Notes under the pieces: generated by a model | What the model was told of the DNA's origin: nothing | Seen by the model: the letters and a program-made list of their open reading frames with translations, nothing else | Databases searched by the model: none | Source: Botryllus schlosseri | Lineage: Eukaryota | Reading direction: 5' to 3' | Length of the DNA: 64,000 nt | Assembly (NCBI GenBank): GCA_051294905.1 | Contig: CM119371.1 | Location: 28,646,001 to 28,710,000, forward strand | Position numbers and translations under genes: made by a program | Shown here: piece by piece, positions 30,793-44,644 of the stretch | How positions within the stretch are numbered: position 1 is the stretch's first letter | Layout: every line of letters begins with the position of its first letter

Positions 30793-31698
30793 CCATATTT
30801 GAACTAATAAAATCTAGGTGAAAGTTCGAATAATGCGTTTCAAGCCTACAACAGAAAAAACACCATGAAAATCATTCATGGCCTTCTCTCGACGAAGGAC
30901 ATCGACGCCATAAATATAACAAGTTCCATAGCTTCAACCTTGGAGTCAGAATTTCCGCCTTTGATTAGTAAGTCCGAACTAAATCACCAAGTGCGTGTTG
31001 GTTCGGAATTATATCCATGTCAGAGATGTTGAAGTTGTCATGACTGTCAATATCTGTATCTTTAAGCCCTGTGGAGTCTTTTAGAGCATTTATTCCTGAT
31101 AGTTTGGGCAGTGAAAACTTACTGTAATACGAAACAAGTGCTTAAAAGGAGATGGCACATCAGGATATGCAGTGTCAAGTCATTTTTTAGTTATTCTAAG
31201 TCTTGGAATGTCACCCATACAGAAATAACAGCCTTCTATAAGGTCTCAAATTTCCCTTCAGAGTCTTTAATGGCAAATAACACTGAATGCCGATATCCCC
31301 TCAACCATCCATATTTCATCGGTATGTTTCGCAGATTACATGAAATGCCCAGTTGTTATCTTTGTCTCAATTTTCATGCCAAAGTAAGTCAAATGAAAAG
31401 CCTTACTTCTATCTATATTTAGTACTTAACTTGTTTCCAACAGATATACAGACCACAGATATAGCAAAACAGCCAGCAGGCAGATTACATTTGTGATGTT
31501 GACATTAATGATGAAATTAGACTCTCTACATCCGCAATCAGTGCATTAAAAGAACATTATGAAAAGGAATTTGAGATTGCTTTCTGTAGCCAATACTGAC
31601 TAACTGAGACGATGATTGTTATACTAACATACAACTATTATGAATTGAATTATGAATCAATGGGACGTCACAGTTGATAGGAAATTCAATAAAGGAGC

Positions 31699-32564
31699 CA
31701 GTGTTGGGATCAAGTCACTACCTTCGGGTCACGAGTCATTGCACATTTTGACTCGAGTCAAGTCAAGTCAATCGATTTTCAAAGGTGACTCAAGTCAAGT
31801 CACTCGATTTTTGGAGGTGACTCGATTCAAATCGAGTGGAGTCAAGTCACATTTCAAGTCAAGTTGCCTTTTCGAAGTATGAGGCATGATTACGTCATTG
31901 CAATTTGCTAGCTGTCTGAAATACAGATTGAGTGGTCATTGATTCCGAACCGATAAACGAATATAGAGTTAAATACGCACGCAAGAAGACGCTGCATCGC
32001 TCACATATACGTAAAACTATTAGACTACGTAAGTAATTGCATAGCCTCAGTTTATAGTTACCAGCCAAAATAGAGAATAGACAAACAAATTGATAAGATG
32101 CAATACATTACCCATTTACAAATAGATATGATAAAATTCGAGCATGCGTCGAGGACAATATAAACTATATTCGAATTCAATTCAAATAAAACAAGAGGTT
32201 TGGTAAAGGTAAAAGAACAGAATTAGACATTTTGCTATTTTAATACTACTAGAGTGAACGACAACGTAAGCTTCGATCACTTCGTTTGCGGTCAATTTAT
32301 TTATGAGAGAACAATCATGGCTCAGTGAAACGTTCGATCATTGAATGATTGATCGCTTTCAAGGGTTACACCGAACATATGCAAGATACAGTGATTTTTA
32401 TCGACACCGATTACTTGATGACTTGAAATTGACTCGTGAATTTTGCTCCGAGTCACGAGTCAATCCACATTTCTGATACGTCGAGTCAAGTCAAGTCATA
32501 CGAAAAAAGTGACTCGAGTCTGACTCGAGTCAAGTCATGATCGACTCGAGTCATCCCAACACTG
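31699..32564. mobile_element. MITE (CAGTGTTGGGAT ends, GACTCGAGTCAA-rich)
   Basis: TSD AAAGGAGC at 31691-31698 and 32565-32572; same family as 36457-42631. Confidence 0.93.
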
Positions 32565-34250
32565 AAAGGAGCTTGAAATATATGGTGCGGACAGACAGAC
32601 AGATTCTTTATTCGTACAATGAGAGTTCTCACAAATATGTAAACAAGACAAACACAGCTATACGACCACATCAAGATGTGTAGTCTTCAAGTCAGCTGTA
32701 GTCAAGGCGTAACGTTAGTAGCCTACATTTATATCATGCACCTGTCGGTCAGTAACACTTCAACAAATGATTAAACAGCAAAACGCAAAACAGTTGTAGT
32801 AGAAAAAAAAAACTGTAACACTAGTTCAAAATAAATAACAGATCATACTCTCGGATCTCTCGGTACTCTCGCATCTCAATATGTAGAAATTAGTTGAGAC
32901 TTAAAATTCCGACAGAATGATGCAAATGATAAACCTCTGTGCTCTATTGATAAGGATTAAGGAGTTCCAAATCCTTGGACTATAGAAATTAAACATGGAA
33001 CGGCAACGACCGATTTTGCAGCTTCGTTTCGCTTCGCCGGGGCTGGAGTGGAGAATTGTTTTGCGTAAGCGACTGTAGGATTTCTGGCAATCCAAACGCT
33101 ATCTTCCCGAGCGCAGTAATTATTTAATCTGGTCTTGATCGAAAGCTACTGTTGCACCGATTCCGAAAATATAAATTAAAATAATTATCAGGCGCTGATC
33201 CACCTAGAATCCGTCCTCTAAATCTGAAATATCGCCATTGTTCTCAAACAACTAGTGAAGAAATAGGGTCCTGATTTTGCTAGCAATGACATGAAATCAG
33301 TCATAAGGGCTGTAGCAGTAACTAAGAACTCATACGCTCGCATTAAAGCGTCGCCAGAAGGGAAAATAATGAGATTGCCTCTGCTGACAATGCTAGCCTT
33401 ATGGAGGCGAAATCACTCTGGCCAACCGTCCACAAGGGGCGCTAAAGCGGTGAGAATCGTTCATTCACCATGGTGATATCGGTCGGTACATGGTCTTGGC
33501 AATTTCATAGGTGCAGAGGTCGCGTACTTTCAATATGCCTAGGGATTTATATCTTGGAGAAAGACGCCCGTATCGGCCCATGCCACTTACAAACGGATAG
33601 CCCTATTTTGGAGAACTGCGATGTGATTCAAGTAGGTATCGTAAGTTAACCCCCAAAAGATGATTCCATAGTCGATGTGATAATGAAAAATATATATCTC
33701 TTAGTACAGATCTAGGGAGAATATGTCGCAAGCGAGCTATAATACCTACTGCCTGCGCTAATTTGCTGGCAAGAGCTGCTAGTTATGGCTTCCAACTCGA
33801 ATCTTTGTCAATACATAGTCCCAAATATTTGACATTATAGGGACTGCTGATAGTTTAACTTTGTCGATGGTCAAAAATGGAGAAGGTAACAAGATCTTAG
33901 GTCTGACATTGATAAGAAGGACTTGAGTTTTTGTTGCATTGATATTCAATTTATTGAGGCTCATCCAATGACAGATTTTTTTCATCTCAATATTGACTGA
34001 GTCTTGTAGAATACTCAAATTGTGGTCAGATTTATATAGGCAAGTGTCATCAGCTAATAAAGTAGTTGAGAATTTAGAGGCACCTGGTAGGTCGATTATG
34101 TAAATGATAAAGAAAAGGGGGCCAAGAGCTGAACCTTGAGGAACACCGCAAGTAATTTCGCTTAGCTCAGATTTCGTACATTGGTCACCAACAAATTGTT
34201 TGCGGCAATTTAGATATGACTTGAACAAGGCTAGCGGTGTCCCTCTAACC

Positions 34251-35355
34251 CAGGGGTGGGCAAACTACGGCCCGCGGGCCGCATGCGGCCCGCAACACCG
34301 TTCTGTGCGGCCCGCGAGAGTCTAAAGAAACTTTTTTTTTAATATTGATAAAATGCGTACTAAAAATCGAATTAACTATTTCTTAGTATATTTCACCATG
34401 ATAATTCTAAGACAGTGGTTCTCAAACTGGTGGGCTCGCTCCCCTTGGGGGTGTGAAAGCATCTGAAGGGGGACGCGAAGCTGAGCGCAACTGAAAAATT
34501 TTCGCGCTCCGCGCGATTTACATCGAATTCAAAGTTTTTGCTCTGTATTTAGTCTGAATTACGTATATTAAAAATCTCTCATCCACAGTCGTAACCTTCC
34601 ATGTCATCAAACTATCCGTTAGGTTTGCTAGCATCCTGGTTGCGTTTTGTGATATGACGATAAGGGGCGCGAAATCTTTTACCATCATAAAGGGGGGGGG
34701 GGCGTGTCTTAAAAGGTTTGAGAATCACTGATCTAAGGTAAATACTTAATATCACAGCGGGATAGCTGCAACGAGATTGACATAATTTGGATCACGAGTG
34801 GGATTTCAGATTGACCACTCCATTTTTAATTATTTCAGTGTTGTGCTTATAAAAAACGATTCGGGCGTGTCTTAGGTAGATTCGTTTGTATGCGTAGAAT
34901 TGGGGTAATTATATTTTATCTACACATAGTAGAAGCGTGTTTGAAGCTAACATGGTTATGATGCTGTCAGCATTGTGTGTCCTGGAACTTAACCAAAAGT
35001 GGAATTAGTAAATCTATGTACAGATCGCTGCTCACAGATTTAAATTTCAATCATGTTCTAAGAATCGGGCCAACCGACTTTCATCTCATCTCTATAGTTT
35101 TGACAATTTGGTTATTGAGGTCCGCCACCCTATGAAATCTCGCCACTACATGTTTTTGACGCGTGTACGATATCATCAAAGCAATGTTTGACTTATTTTA
35201 AATAAGCACTTACGTATATTATCTCCATGTCCTCACTATATAATCAAATATCAATATTGCGTTTTGGTTAATAATCCCAATTTTATATAGTGCGGCCCGC
35301 GAATGGATTCAGATGATGAATGCGGCCCGCGAGCTCAAAGGTTTGCCCACCCCTG
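34251..35355. mobile_element. Buster/Charlie-type hAT non-autonomous element
   Basis: CAGGGGTGGGCAAAC / GTTTGCCCACCCCTG; TSD CTCTAACC at 34243-34250 and 35356-35363; subterminal GCGGCCCGC motifs. Confidence 0.93.
34413..34730. mobile_element. Charlie-type MITE nested in 34251-35355
   Basis: CAGTGGTTCTCAAAC / GTTTGAGAATCACTG; imperfect TSD TTCTAAGA/ATCTAAGG. Confidence 0.8.
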
Positions 35356-36911
35356 CTCTAACCCCATTATGCCATAGTTTATTCCAGGGGTGGGCAACAT
35401 ACGGCCCGCGGGCCGGATCCGGCCCGCAAAGGGATTTTGTCCGGCCCGCGTACAGTTTTTCGTCTTACATGATAATGTGGCCCGCCGGCCCCAGTCTTCC
35501 GAGATTCCCCACTACTTGCTCACATACATTTTAGTGATTGTATGTTTTTATACATACGTATGTACCGCGAGCGAGGGGGGGGAGCTTACGCGTAAGTTCG
35601 TCGAAGCGAGAAGGCTTGCATTATCGGCATTATGATGCACTGAACCCTAATGTCATTTGTGGTAATAATGGTGTTTGTTGACGACAATGGTCAGGCCGAT
35701 ATTTCCTATTTTTGATTCTGTAACCGCCGACTTGTAGCACGGCGCACACTTCTAGGCTTTTGTAAGACACCGATTATGCCAGGTGTTGCCAACTGAAAAC
35801 GGGTCGCGGGTCAATTTCAAATTTCGAGGCCGCGACCGGCATGAATTCAATATCGAGATAGACAGGCCGCTCAGTTTAACAACCACGCTATCTCGTAACC
35901 TACTTAACCCTAATGCATTGATATCTTGGTAAGTTTGGGGTACCGGGCTTATTGAACGTCTTGAAATCTTAATGATGGATTGCACCGTGTGTTGATTGAT
36001 CAGAGAGAAGCAGACATGGTGGTACCTGTATGACAGGGGTGGCCAACCTGCGGCCGTAGAAGCAAATTTGTGCGGCCGTGGACACGTAATTCAATTAGTA
36101 GGTGGTGGCAGCCGTCGACGTGTAATTTGAATTTAGGAATTGACTCCCGATTTCTTGAAAGATTTTAATTATTCTTGTAAGTTTCTTCAATGCGACTTTA
36201 TTTTTCGATTTTGATATAGTTGCGCACTTTGCAATCAGAGCCCCACAGTACAGTTGCGAACAGATCCACTACATATAGAAACACCAACTCGGAATCGTGT
36301 ACTCCTCACTACATCGACAATCCTGACGGGAGGTCAAGACATGCAAAGAACAGCATGCAACAAAGTGACTAATAATAATTGACCTGCCCTGACTGACCCT
36401 CCACCAACTCTACCGGTGAATCTGATCACATGGGATGAGAAATAATACGTAGAACTCAGTGTTGGGATCAAGTCACTACCTTCGAGTCACGAGTCATTTC
36501 GAGTCATTGCACATTTTGACTCGAGTCAAGTCAAGTCAATCGATTTTCGAAGGTGACTCGAGTCAAGTCAAGTCACTCGATTTTTGAAGGTGACTCGAGT
36601 CAAGTCGAGTCAAGTCAAGTCAAGTCACGAGTCAAGTCACATTTCAAGTCAAGTTGCATTTTCGAATGCCTACGCCATTGCATTTTGCTAGCTGTCTGGA
36701 ATACAGATTAACTGGTCATTGAATTTGAACCGATGAACGAATATGAAGGTAAATATAAACGTAAGACGGCGCTGTATCGCTTACATATACGTAGAAATGC
36801 TGAACTACGCAAGTATAACGGCAAAGCCTCAGTATATAGTTACCAGCCAATATAGAGAATTGATAAGAAACGAATTGATAAGATGCAATACATTACCCAT
36901 TTACAAATGAA

Positions 36912-37148
36912 TGTGTGAATATCTCTTGCTGCTATCACTCTCTCTCTACTAGTATCCTTAAACGCATGAGCGATCTCGTCTTCTTGTTGTTGTGATTGCG
37001 CGACGTGTGTGCATGTATGTATCAGCACCCACGTCTTGTGAGTTATTGGAGTAATAGGGATTAGGTTAGTCGATGCAACTGTTCTTTTGTATTTCAGTTT
37101 GATCATTTATTACGGTATTTAACCTATGAATAAATGCAAAGTTGCACA
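36912..37148 (+). repeat. 5' LTR
   Basis: TGTGTGAATATC...AAAGTTGCACA; Inr-like TCAGTT at 37094-37099; AATAAA at 37129-37134. Confidence 0.96.
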
Positions 37149-37158
37149 TGATCAAACT
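37149..37158 (+). promoter_or_regulatory. Atypical primer-binding site complementary to LTR-internal sequence
   Basis: TGATCAAACT directly follows the LTR, lacks TGG, and is the exact reverse complement of AGTTTGATCA at 37096-37105. Confidence 0.75.
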
Positions 37159-37173
37159 TGATACAGATTAACA

Positions 37174-40100
37174 ATGCCGAAGCTTTCTTGCCCAATCCAA
37201 GACTGCGAGTATGAGACTGAATCCGAAGACGCGGCAGGCGCCGCCGCACAGCTCAGAATCCATGCTACAATCCACACAACAGGTCATCCTGTCTCGCGTT
37301 CGAGACCCCCTGTCATGGAACGACCCATCATTTCGCGTGGCTCCACTGCCGAGGAATGGCAAATATTCCTCAGAAAATGGGACGATTTTAAAAAAGGGAC
37401 CGAGATACCCGACAATCTGATCAAGAGCCACCTTTGGCAATGCTGTGAGATAACTTTATCGAATGACCTCTTCAAGCAAGTCGGTGACTTCAATCAGGTC
37501 AGTGAAGGTGATATGCTGAAAGCTATTGAATCTCTAGCAGTTGTCAAAATCGCCACAAGCATGCGCACCGTTGCTCTATTTTCGGCCCAGCAGGATCAAG
37601 GGCAATCCTTTAGTGCATTTCTGGCCGAAGTTAAATCGTCGGCAAGAATTTGCTCATTCCAAATGACTTGTACCAAGCATGACTGCACCCAAGTCAACGA
37701 CTTTTCTGATAGAATTGTTAAACATATTGTCATCGCCGGCCTGGCTGATGATGAGGTTCAGCGGCAAGTCCTTGGTGTTGCAAATCTCGATGCAAAATCG
37801 CTAGACGAAACTGTCCAGATTATTGAAAACAAGGAACTGGCGCTCCGTGCCACCTCCTTCCAGACGAGAAATCAGCATGACTCTAGCGTCGCAGCCAGCA
37901 GTTTAATTGGCACGCCTTCGCCCGATCTCTCTCAAGTCGTCCAATGTAGCAAATGTGGCAATGTCATGAAGAAGTATAAATTCTTGCACGGGAAGTTTGG
38001 TAAGCCGAGGTTGCGCGAGTTTAAACAATGTCTAGCCTGCTGGAGAAAAAGCAAACAATCGGAGACGCCTAGTACTGGCACCGCTTCTAGTATCGATATC
38101 GCTTCAGTATCAAACCGTACCAATAGCACTGTCGAATCTCGTGCTTCGGAAGTCATATTGGACCACCACATATTCGATGGCACGTACGGTTGGTTGCTGA
38201 AAGACTGCAAGGCACAACCAACCATTGATCTTTTGGTCTCAACCCGGCAAGCCGATTATGCCCAGTTCAATATCCAGCGTCCCAAAATATCGCCCAAGAA
38301 GATAAAAGCGATATCAGACACTGGTGCACAATCATCCTTGATGGGATTGAAACTGTTTCGAGCATGCGGCTTCAAAGACCAGCATCTCATCCCGGTGAAG
38401 AAACGCTTGGTGGCAGCTAATGATGAGTGTATCCACATCCTGGGCGCTGTGTTTCTGCGACTTTCGGGTGCGGCAGTTTCTGGTGATGTCATAGAAACCG
38501 CTGAGATGGTATACATTACGGACTCTACGAAACTCTTCTACCTTAGTCGAGATGCCATGCAGAAGTTGGGCATCATTGGGCCCGATTTTCCTCAAATTGG
38601 GGCAGCCGCACTGCACGCGACACAAGAGTCAACCCTTGAGGGTAACCCGCATCAAACATGTAGCTGCCCACGGAGGTCCACGCCTCCTCCACGCCCCCAG
38701 CAACTGCCATTCCAGCCTTGTGCGGAGAATGTTGATAAAATGAAGCAGTGGCTACTTGAGAGGTATGCATCATCCACATTCAACAAGTGCAAACACAGCC
38801 CACTACCAACCATGACTGGGCCGCCTATTTCCATTCATATCGATCCGTCAGCGAAACCGACTGCAGTCCACACACCGGCTCCCATTCCACTTCATTGGAA
38901 AGAGGAAATTGAGAAGCAGTTGGAGGCGGACGTAAAATTAGGGGTGATTGAAAAAGTGGAGCCGAACACGCCAACGACCTGGTGTCATAGGGCCATATGG
39001 GTCCGCAAGGCAGATGGCAGCCCGAGGAGAGTTGTTGACTTCCAATCGCTGAACCGCTTCTGCTCTCGAGAAACACACCATGTTGTGGCTCCTTTCAAAC
39101 AAGCACGTTCGATACCTCCAAACACTTACAGGTCTGTCACAGATGCCTGGAATCGTTACCATTCCGTGCCCGTGCGTGAAGAGGATAGACACCTTCTGAC
39201 ATTCATCACTGAGTTCGGGAGATATCGGTATAGAGTGGCCCCGCAGGGATACCTGGCCAGTGGCGACGGGTACGCTTACCGCTACGACAGCATCATTGCT
39301 GACACACCACGCAAAACGAAGTGCGTGGACGACACGGTCCTCTGGGACGATGACCTTGCCACGCACTGGTGGAGAATGATTGACTATCTAGAATTAATGG
39401 GCCGTGAAGGTATCATCTTAAACGCCTCCAAGTTCCAGTTCTGCCGCAGACACATCGAGTTCGCCGGCTTCGAAATTACTGCTGAGAATGTTCGCCCTCT
39501 GCCCAAATATTTAGAGGCAATACAGTGCTTCCCACGGCCAACAAAAATAGCAGATATACGTGCATGGTTTGGGCTGGTCAACCAGGTATCCCATTATGGC
39601 CGGCTTTCTACCATTATGGCACCATTCAAACCGTTACTAAGCCCGAAAACTCCATTTTGCTGGACTTCCGAACTTGATGACGCATTCGCGAACTCCAAGC
39701 TGGAGCTCATCAACGCTATCAAAGATGGAGTACGGATCTTTGACCCCACTAGAAGAACGTGCCTGACCCCGGACTGGTCAAGGTCTGGCATTGGCTACTG
39801 GTTGCGACAAAAGCACTGCAAATGCGTTTCCTTGACTCCCGACTGTTGCGACCATGGGTGGAAAATCACTCTCGCTGGCTCAAGGTTCCTTCGATCCGCC
39901 GAACAACGTTATTGTTCTGTAGAGGGCGAGGCGCTTGGAATCGCATGGGCATTGGAAGATACGAAGTTCTTCACCCTAGGATGTGACGATCTCATCATCT
40001 GCACTGACCACAAACCTTTGGTAAAAATCTTTGGGGACCGCTCCCTTGATGAAATTACTAACACAAGGATTTTTCGTCTGAAGCAGCGCACATTGTCATG

Positions 40101-41871: not shown

Positions 41872-41886
41872 AGGAGTTGGGGGGGA
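41872..41886 (+). other. Polypurine tract
   Basis: AGGAGTTGGGGGGGA immediately upstream of the 3' LTR. Confidence 0.85.
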
Positions 41887-42123
41887 TGTGTGAATATCTC
41901 TTGCTGCTATCACTCTCTCTCTACTAGTATCCTTAAACGCATGAGCGATCTCGTCTTCTTGTTGTTGTGATTGCGCGACGTGTGTGCATGTATGTATCAG
42001 CACCCACGTCTTGTGAGTTATTGGAGTAATAGGGATTAGGTTAGTCGATGCAACTGTTCTTTTGTATTTCAGTTTGATCATTTATTACGGTATTTAACCT
42101 ATGAATAAATGCAAAGTTGCACA
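41887..42123 (+). repeat. 3' LTR
   Basis: Direct copy of 36912-37148. Confidence 0.96.
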
Positions 42124-44644
42124 ATGAATATGATACCATTCGAGCCTGCGCCAATGGTCGAGGACTATATAAACTATCTTCGAATTTAATTTCAAGAAAG
42201 AGGTTTGGTTCAGGTACAGAGAACAGTAATAGACATTATTCTATTAAAATACATTACCATACTAGTTTACGACAGCGTAAGCTATAAGCTTCGATCACTT
42301 CGTAAGCGGTCAATTTATTTGTGAGAGAACAATGGAGGCTCAGTAAAACGCACGATCATTGAATGATTGGTCGCTCTCACGAGTTACACCCGCGTTTTGC
42401 GAACAATCCGATTGCAAGATACAGTGATTTTTATCGACATCGATTGCTTGATGACTTGAAATTTACTCGTGAATTTTGCTTCGAGTCACGAGTCAATCCA
42501 CATTTCTGATACGTCGAGTCAAGTCAAGTCAAGTCATTTTAACAAAGTGACTCGAGTCAAGTCAAGTCATACGAAAAAGGTGACTCGAGTCTGACTCGAG
42601 TCAAGTCATGACTCGAGTCATCCTAACACTGGCTAGAACTACTAATTTTAGTGACGAAATTCATGAATGAATCTGAAAAAGTTTTCGCGCTTGGCGCGAT
42701 TATGAACAGCCTACATTATTTAATAAATTAGTACGGAGTTCGCCGGAAATGAACATAGACACTTTAACATGAGTATTTGGCATCCTGCTAGTTCATTACG
42801 ACTATTCCCTGGAATGCGGCCGTAGGCTACATGAGTAGTCGAAATGCGGCCGTGACTGGCAAAAAGATTGGCCACCCCTGCTGTATGACAGTGCTGTTCT
42901 CAAATCCACATTGTCTTCGTCATTATTGGCGAGAAATAGCTTTGAATTTGCATTGCTGTCGTTAAAATACATTCATTAAATACGATTTATTCCTTGTATA
43001 CGTGGATAAATGGGCGAATAATGTATCGATTCAGCAATCCGGCCCACCAAGTACTTAATTTTCCTATATCCGGCCCGCCGACTTGGAGAAGTTGCCCGCC
43101 CCTGGTTTATTCAGAAGTATTGAATGATCTACCGTATCAAATGCTTTTTTTCAAGTCAAGAAATATGGAGCAACCGACCTCATTAGATATAATTATTGAT
43201 TGGTACTTGAGCAGTAAATCTAGAATGGCATGTTGAGTATTGTGATGAGTTCGAAAGCCGAATTGATTGGGCCATAATATGGTTTGAAGAAATTCGGAGA
43301 GCCTTGAGTGTAAAAGCTTTTCAAAAAGTATTGCTAAGCAAGATAAGACTGATATTGGTCGATAATTATTCATTGACATTCTGTTTCCTTTTTTGTGTAC
43401 AGGAACTACTCTGGCTATATTCTTTAAGAGCTTCAGGAAAGATTCCTAAAGCCATACAGTAACGAAAATTTGACGTAGTAAGTAAGCCGTAGGGAATCCC
43501 AGCAGACTGGGGCCATGGGTCACATTCAGACATGGGGTAATCGCGATTAGTAATCGTAATCGATTACGACGATTACAGCATTTGCAAGTAATCGCAATCG
43601 ATTACATTCGAAAAAATTCCAAAGTAATCGTAATCGACTAATTCCCGTATCTTATCGATTTCTTTGTGAGAGAACGGTTACTTTTTATTTGTACAAGGAC
43701 ATACGACATAAACTGAACATTCGTGAGCAAGGAAGAGATATTATACCAGGCTAGTGATAGCACAAACGTATGATTTTCAAACGCCACTGCTCATTATTAC
43801 GTCAGAAGTATTAGCTTTGCTCGTCATTGCGTAAGAAGTACCCACATGTAGTAAATAGATATTCGATTCACTGTATATTGTAACGTGATTGCAATAACAC
43901 CCGTCATGGTGTATACCTGGTTATCAATACACTCCAGACGCCACTACCTTGCAGCAGCAGCAGCAGAATAATAAGCGCCACTCTTCCTAGTTTCAAATAG
44001 CAGCTTATGTGTGGATGTTAGGTTATGCTTAATTAAGCTAAAGATTGCTAAACTACGGCTACAGTAAGTTAGTAATCGATAGCTAAACGCAGTTTGACTG
44101 TTACTGCTTGGCGAGCAGTAGGCATCTGTACGTACGAAAGAACACCCGACAAAGATGTGAAATTTTGTACTCGTCAAATGAAACATTACGATTTCCACAA
44201 CGAGGCAATAAATCAACAGCTGCTGATATATATTATAACCGAGCCGTTTCTCGCAATGGTAGCTTGTAATATATGTATTAAGTGGAAGGCAGATTTTATG
44301 TTAACAATATCTTATTCTCATTGTAATATATCTCTCTTTAGCCGAGACCCTAACATGCAGACAAGTGATTGTGAGCGAAAGTTCCTTTATTACTCTCATG
44401 ACGTTAACTTAAATACGAACGAGAACACAAGACACCAATTATTAGGACTACGTATATCACATCCTTTTTCACCCCAAGATGCTTAAGTTACGTAGTCCTC
44501 CAAGTATTTAGGTTTCCTCGGATACGCTCTGATCTTCGTGGTATGTGTTGCGGTGTAGTGGGTATACTGGTTGCTTCATCAGCAACCACGGAGGCAGCTA
44601 CGTCATTGAAGCACGACGGTTGGGCGACGTCGACGTCCTCTCGG

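Follow-up and report, generated by a model that had tools for sequence, protein, structure and literature searches.

A predicted self-primed Ty3/gypsy retrotransposon without a visible chromodomain in Botryllus schlosseri

To our knowledge, self-priming of reverse transcription has been shown experimentally only in elements of fission yeast, and it is predicted for the Tf1/sushi group, for Tcn1 and for some plant copia elements. Tf1 uses an 11-nt primer, has a single ORF and makes a 5-bp duplication. The Tf1/sushi group is chromoviral and membership in it is set by RT/IN phylogeny. According to the available text of one report, Tf1 and Tf2 from Schizosaccharomyces pombe and Tj1 from S. japonicus carry, directly after the 5' LTR, a primer binding site (PBS) that is complementary to a 5' segment of their own mRNA and not to a tRNA (PMC4600332). 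The available portions of two further sources describe the Tf1/sushi elements Maggy, Skippy, Cft-1, Boty, Grasshopper, Afut1 and sushi-ichi, from fungi and vertebrates, as self-priming and without a tRNA PBS (PMC6934838; PMC6317226), and the second of these, in the same portion, presents the Tcn1 chromoviruses and the plant TAR elements of the copia type (Houba, Osr-1) as predicted self-primers whose PBS is complementary to their own LTR (PMC6317226). The fungal GalEa copia elements have a Conserved Hairpin Site and no tRNA PBS; the accessible text places both arms of the hairpin downstream of the LTR, with pairing from the last A of the 5' LTR onwards, and states that the authors saw no complement inside the LTR (PMC5445492). 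As far as its accessible text goes, a survey of errantiviruses sought only tRNA sites. Pipelines that seek only such sites will call self-primed elements PBS-less. The literature covered, which lay outside subscription journals, did not reveal any description of self-priming for gypsy elements that come from invertebrates or have no chromodomain.

Here, we analyse a stretch of 64,000 nt from Botryllus schlosseri (assembly GCA_051294905.1, contig CM119371.1, positions 28,646,001-28,710,000, forward strand), referred to below as the window. An earlier note on this DNA had interpreted a gypsy element within it as a candidate self-primer of the Tf1 type. Comparison of the element with its relatives supports that interpretation, and we regard Tf1-type self-priming as the best reading of the locus and a probable one, in which priming and cleavage are predicted from sequence.

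The window element and its complementary arms

The window element is a young, apparently intact 5.2-kb Ty3/gypsy LTR retrotransposon (Table 1). It has the hallmarks of this class, with two LTRs, a target-site duplication and a polypurine tract, and the identical 237-nt LTRs, the 5-bp duplication and the one ORF of 1536 aa bear out the intactness claimed in the earlier note. The direct repeat as computed spans 36911-37148 and 41886-42123 at 100% identity, and the LTR proper was set at 36912-37148 by its TG..CA ends. Domains in the ORF follow the Ty3/gypsy order of protease (weak), RT, RNase H and integrase: aspartyl-protease matches at aa 372-426 are weak, and Pfam places RVT_1 at aa 611-768, RT_RNaseH at 857-966, Integrase_H2C2 at 1105-1159 and rve at 1190-1268. 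The best solved relative of the polyprotein is Ty3 Gag-Pol (E 2e-40). Consistent with the previous remark that no chromodomain was visible, none was detected when the whole ORF was searched at E<=0.01 and its last 264 aa at E<=5. The C-terminal integrase chromodomain of the Tf1/sushi group was thus not found. Mag and SURL have short LTRs and a single ORF, and the window element fits these traits. At the N-terminus of the polyprotein (window 37174-37270) is a conserved M-P-x3-C-P-x3-C-x-Y motif followed by histidines; this zinc-finger-like motif is common to relatives down to 41% identity and is covered by no Pfam family.

Table 1. Features of the window element, in window coordinates
Feature	Position	Strand	Evidence or remark
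Target-site duplication ATGAA, left	36907-36911	+	same 5 bases at 42124-42128
5' LTR, 237 nt, TG..CA ends	36912-37148	+	100% identical to 41887-42123
U3 (predicted)	36912-37095	+	all sequence upstream of the predicted RNA start
Initiator-like TCAGTT	37094-37099	+	sequence; putative RNA start at A37096
5' arm, putative self-primer AGTTTGATCAT	37096-37106	+	exact complement of 37148-37158; invariant in 23/23 copies; covaries with PBS in sister families
R (inferred), 53 nt, U5 ~zero	37096-37148	+	poly(A) loose ends directly after 37148
AATAAA poly(A) signal	37129-37134	+	inside the 41-nt loop; 14 nt upstream of the poly(A) site seen in the reads
3' arm, putative primer binding site ATGATCAAACT	37148-37158	+	last LTR base A + 10 internal bases
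Single gag-pol ORF, 1536 aa	37174-41784	+	Pfam domains
Polypurine tract AGGAGTTGGGGGGGA	41872-41886	+	adjoins 3' LTR; similar runs at the same place in sister families
3' LTR	41887-42123	+	100% identical to 5' LTR
Target-site duplication ATGAA, right	42124-42128	+	matches left copy

The element is nested inside another repeat. Where copies of that repeat are uninterrupted, RNA and contig reads derived from them continue across the site of insertion, with loose ends at 36908. The host repeat has a unit of ~4.8 kb that contains runs of GAGTCAAGTCAAGTCA-like short repeats. Its spacing is 4758-4780 nt where the element is absent and 10018-10038 nt across the one unit that carries it (window 31668-32540, 36426-36815 and 42285-42611). 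Two copies of a G+C-rich segment of 67 nt, 84% alike and with internal palindromes (GGCCCGCGGGCC), lie 1134 nt apart at 34250-34316 and 35384-35450.

The feature that sets the reading of this locus is found at the 3' edge of the 5' LTR. The sequence that directly adjoins the LTR, TGATCAAACT, does not begin with the TGG of a tRNA-type site. Instead, ATGATCAAACT, which joins the last LTR base to the 10 internal bases that follow it, is the exact 11-nt reverse complement of AGTTTGATCAT inside the LTR. The letters and coordinates of both arms agree with those given in the earlier note, as do the non-TGG start of the internal region, the initiator-like TCAGTT at the start of the 5' arm and the AATAAA located 33 nt after 37096. 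Pairing is limited to 11 bp because C37095 and T37159 cannot pair. When folded as RNA, the segment 37096-37176 forms an 11-bp stem that closes a 41-nt loop, at -15.1 kcal/mol (z -2.3); 6 of 200 shuffled sequences fold equally well.

Covariation of the arms among relatives

We searched the genome (495 Mb in 219 contigs) with the 5' LTR and the first 152 internal bases as the query. This query matches 43 places, 20 of them over its full length at 87-100% identity. Neither 11-mer varies in any of the 23 aligned copies that reach the PBS, a set that includes the window copy and whose members are 87-100% alike, and the divergence among them lies mostly outside 37060-37200, the stretch printed. At the protein level there are 15 matches of at least 96% identity over the whole RT-IN query, and eight of these have an open frame of 1540 aa. 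Since invariance of the arms within a family provides no covariation, we examined more distant relatives.

Family B shares 75% amino acid identity with the window element in RT-IN and has LTRs of 184 nt with the LTR arm AGCTTAATCAT. In one of its four copies the last LTR base A is followed by TGATTAAGCT, which gives an exact 11-nt complement that differs from the window arms by two compensatory double changes. The other three copies have TGATTAAACT, TGATTAAACT and TGATTAAATT after this A; an 8-bp core is kept in all four, and in these three the pairing is broken once or twice among the outer 2-3 positions despite identical LTRs. Family D is more distant (50% amino acid identity), and here CTAGTCAT faces A then TGACTAG in five of five copies, with 8 bp paired and three more compensatory changes. 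The loop in families B and D is 40-45 nt, like that in the window. The length of the complement is therefore variable, with 8 bp in most B and D copies, and 11 nt is not universal. Given the outer mismatches in family B and the 8 bp in family D, priming may use fewer than 11 nt, or the PBS is not always rewritten from the primer.

Family G, which is 34% identical to family D, has a canonical TGGCGTTGTCGG site and no self-complement of at least 5 nt, and tRNA-type sites therefore exist among the gypsy elements of this genome. The LTRs of family G are 162 nt long and its TGGCG-starting site lies at L084:808-825, with the same site in L086. An LTR pair was not found in family F and in four truncated copies. 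As a separate observation, the PBS arm is followed by CTTAATAC or a near variant (window 37157-37166) in two families, A and B, as well as in L195, a short D-like copy that is non-coding; family D proper has CTCTAATAC at the position of this motif.

Family D is unusual in a second respect. Its 5' LTR is 85 nt and its 3' LTR 220 nt in five of five sequenced copies at different sites (L061:1451-1535 and L061:6361-6580, L076/L077, L078/L079, L080/L081 and L082/L083), each of which is flanked by its own perfect 5-bp duplication, and coordinates suggest a sixth copy. The extra 135 nt of the 3' LTR is bounded by a 9-nt direct repeat, TCATCCTTT, and contains a second polypurine run. The ends of this segment can pair: folding as DNA gives z -2.1, a value equalled by 6 of 200 shuffles, and folding as RNA gives z -0.2. 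An older D relative has the long form ahead of a PBS. Standard reverse transcription should yield like LTRs and does not account for this systematic asymmetry.

To extend the comparison beyond this genome, we used a profile of 12 polyproteins, which identified 80 metagenome loci with 35-59% amino acid identity. Two LTRs are present in 15 of these loci, and nine of the 15 have an exact complement of at least 10 nt within 3 nt of the BLAST-defined LTR end, each found in at most 1 of 500 shuffles. At L102 and L116 the BLAST LTR end was over-extended by chance, and 11-nt arms are present at the corrected ..CA/TG.. junction. We also scanned without an anchor: within 400 nt upstream of each match, the inverted repeat of greatest length was taken, with its form unconstrained. 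In the first such scan 57 loci reached the N-terminus, 11 of them with less than 100 nt upstream, and among the 46 others there were 27 with arms of at least 10 nt, two with 9-nt arms and 17 with none; many of these misses were due to wrong ORF starts. In the second scan the start was set by the conserved N-terminal motif. Here, 36 of the 80 loci were without the motif or an open frame and five had less than 120 nt upstream, leaving 39 that were testable. Arms of 10-19 nt with loops of 36-81 nt were found in 35 of these 39 loci (each in at most 2 of 100 shuffles) and 9-nt arms in one. The three testable loci without arms are L114, which has 11 nt with one mismatch, L137, whose 5' arm lies off the contig, and L166.

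The 35 loci with arms represent 29 distinct arm sequences. In 33 of them the 5' arm ends in CAT and the 3' arm starts with ATG, the A of which is the last LTR base, and an ATGG start occurs in none of the 35; neither property was imposed by the search. Indeed, in all families with mapped LTR ends the 3' arm begins on the final LTR base. The compensatory covariation that the earlier note had predicted for relatives is therefore found, both in families B and D and in the 29 different arms of 35 of 39 metagenome loci. The observation that it had named as contrary evidence, relatives with a canonical TGG site and no conserved arms, is not the one made here, as a TGG-type site is present in 0 of the 35 relatives with arms and in neither of the sister families B and D. 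As in the self-primed class, the window element has no tRNA-type PBS and carries a putative PBS whose complementarity to its own LTR is kept through sequence change in relatives.

Two metagenome loci depart from this pattern. In L098 and L099, the closest metagenome relatives (54% amino acid identity), LTRs are present, but the arms are missing and no ATG stands in frame ahead of the conserved N-terminal motif (L099:539-790, and similarly L098); they may represent a rearranged or dependent lineage.

These comparisons bear on two alternative explanations of the match. The simplest is that it is a chance inverted repeat. Arms of at least 8 nt anchored at the LTR end arise in 694 of 20,000 shuffles of the LTR, and short arms alone would be compatible with this idea. 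However, a complement of at least 11 nt within 2 nt of the LTR end arises in 11 of 20,000 shuffles, and the feature recurs in nearly all testable relatives with different sequences. Chance is effectively refuted by these comparative data. The second alternative is that the primer is a host RNA, such as a fragment of a tRNA or a different small RNA, annealed to 37149-37166, with the match to the LTR being secondary. Half-tRNA primers are known in copia-type elements, according to the available part of one source (PMC6317226), and our tRNA comparison spanned only four anticodon types. Against this, the 29 different PBS arms are each complementary to their own LTR and none is of the TGG type. Moreover, the longest complement to 37148-37173 in the 20 host tRNA genes sampled (only Lys-UUU, Ala-UGC, Arg-UCG and Ser-GCU) is 6 nt, Rfam has no match in 36850-37250 and no tRNA was found within the 64-kb window. 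We therefore consider a host primer very unlikely, mainly on the evidence of the arms in relatives.

Transcript ends and the start of the 5' arm

To relate the arms to the ends of the transcript, we aligned three raw RNA runs and one contig set to the window, including the single-cell RNA datasets X22 and X23. Among the reads whose match to the window stops at 37148, poly(A) follows in 29 from X22 (agreement 0.57) and 26 from X23 (0.59), with a consensus agreement that is low because other flanks are mixed in. As polyadenylation thus falls on the final LTR base, R ends there and U5 is ~zero, in line with the very short R/U5 proposed previously. Reads spanning the internal 3' region into the LTR number six in X22 and two in X23, and X23 covers the entire element at a depth of 1-7. 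The coverage of the element, the reads that cross into the LTR and the poly(A) tails together indicate that the family is transcribed and that its R ends at the last LTR base.

A third alternative gives the stem a role in regulation or packaging, as a hairpin in the 5' leader, and leaves priming to something else. Such a hairpin could, for example, hide the promoter-proximal AATAAA and cleavage site, and it would be confined to the 5' end of the RNA, since the LTR does not contain the 3' arm. The AATAAA and the poly(A) site of the window element do fall within the loop or stem, and a functional hairpin would covary just as a primer and its binding site would. However, in every family with mapped ends the 3' arm sits exactly at the last LTR base, a placement that a masking stem does not need, and that fits a primer site since the end of the LTR is set by the point at which minus-strand synthesis starts. 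Furthermore, the loops of L129 and L155 have no AATAAA, and no other primer site is seen: the LTR and the ATG are just 25 nt apart, and TGG is present in no relative. On balance, we judge a hairpin with a role other than priming to be unlikely.

Self-priming of the Tf1 type would place the 5' arm at the extreme 5' end of the RNA. The depth of RNA reads just downstream of the 5' LTR is 0 in X24 and X22 and 1-5 in X23, and at this depth of 0-5 none of the read begin-sites listed is at 37096. Sequence comparison points indirectly to a start at the arm. CAG or TAG (YAG) occurs within +1 to +3 of the start of complementarity in 18 of 26 lineages, compared with a background of 9% in the same regions, and often lies within TTTCAG or TCAGTT; eight of the 26 lineages are without YAG at this place. 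This pattern fits an initiator with the A as first base and the arm as the extreme 5' end of the RNA. A reading of the YAG as a splice or trans-splice acceptor was set aside, as the pairing includes the AG itself in many lineages.

Other ends in the data are noted here in their own right. Three metagenome contigs begin inside the 5' arm or within 2 nt of it (L092:1-6, L120:1-7 and L140:3-9), which would fit assembly from RNA beginning at the arm, and L120 runs past its 3' LTR into another PBS. In X24, reads with the template-switch oligo directly before 40837 and 41107 (four reads each) mark internal RNA 5' ends or broken RNA in the integrase region.

The data on arm starts are also relevant to a different form of self-priming, by an internal segment of the RNA. 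Transcription might start upstream of 37096, with a cut after 37106 freeing a longer 5' primer, or two packaged RNAs might prime in trans. The absence of YAG at the arm start in eight of 26 lineages is compatible with this idea, as is the distance of ~180 nt between arm and PBS in the older D relative L193. However, complementarity ends at or within 2 nt of CAG or TAG in 18 of the 26 lineages, as expected if the RNA begins there, and we hold priming by an internal segment to be quite unlikely.

A model for self-priming and its relation to known systems

We envision the following scenario for Tf1-type self-priming of the window element. RNA polymerase II would start at A37096 in the TCAGTT of the 5' LTR. 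The RNA, as the reads support, would be polyadenylated at the last base of the LTR, so that the LTR consists of U3 and a 53-nt R with essentially no U5. The first 11 nt of the RNA would then fold back onto 37148-37158 across the 41-nt loop, through the pairing whose complementarity, conservation and covariation are documented above. By analogy with Tf1, RNase H would cut after U11, that is, after the CAU, and the freed 3' OH would prime a minus strand that copies 37147 back to 37107, giving a strong-stop DNA of ~41 nt, and then jumps to the R at the 3' end. The plus strand, started at the polypurine tract 41872-41886, would copy U3-R and the primer, thereby rewriting the PBS. Retention and copying of a single primer base on the minus strand would explain why the duplex always includes the A that ends the LTR. 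Integration yields the 5-bp duplication that flanks the element.

The same architecture appears to span a broad clade without the chromodomain, represented in an animal-type genome and by numerous contigs from marine metagenomes. We offer, tentatively and with considerable doubt, the wider proposal that a large and hitherto undescribed clade of chromodomain-less Ty3/gypsy elements of marine eukaryotes primes itself, that its LTRs are U5-less with a last base written by the primer, and that family D undergoes a non-standard strand transfer. The unequal ends of family D could arise, for example, if the polymerase skips the 135-nt segment bracketed by the stem, or if the jump occurs through R homology as the PBS duplex is only 8 bp.

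If the self-priming reading is correct, tRNA-independent priming would be a common strategy and not a fungal oddity. The window family is young, multi-copy and transcribed, and its RNA start, poly(A) site and strong-stop cDNA can be read directly.

Among the described systems, GalEa differs from the window element in the placement of its arms, both of which lie downstream of the LTR, whereas the partner arm of the window element lies inside the LTR as in Tf1. The Tcn1 and TAR elements are identified by the same kind of sequence evidence, but they belong to other lineages and another kingdom, and TAR is of the Ty1/copia type. The Tf1/sushi group resembles the window element in being without a tRNA PBS and includes vertebrate elements; it is chromoviral, whereas the window element has no visible chromodomain. 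The closest likeness in the arrangement of the primer site is to Tf1, Tf2 and Tj1, in that the putative PBS directly after the 5' LTR complements the element's own 5' segment rather than a tRNA. Compared with Tf1, the window element has no visible chromodomain and resides in an animal-type genome, its R extends to the last LTR base, the arms vary between 8 and 19 nt across the clade, and its self-priming is a prediction from sequence.
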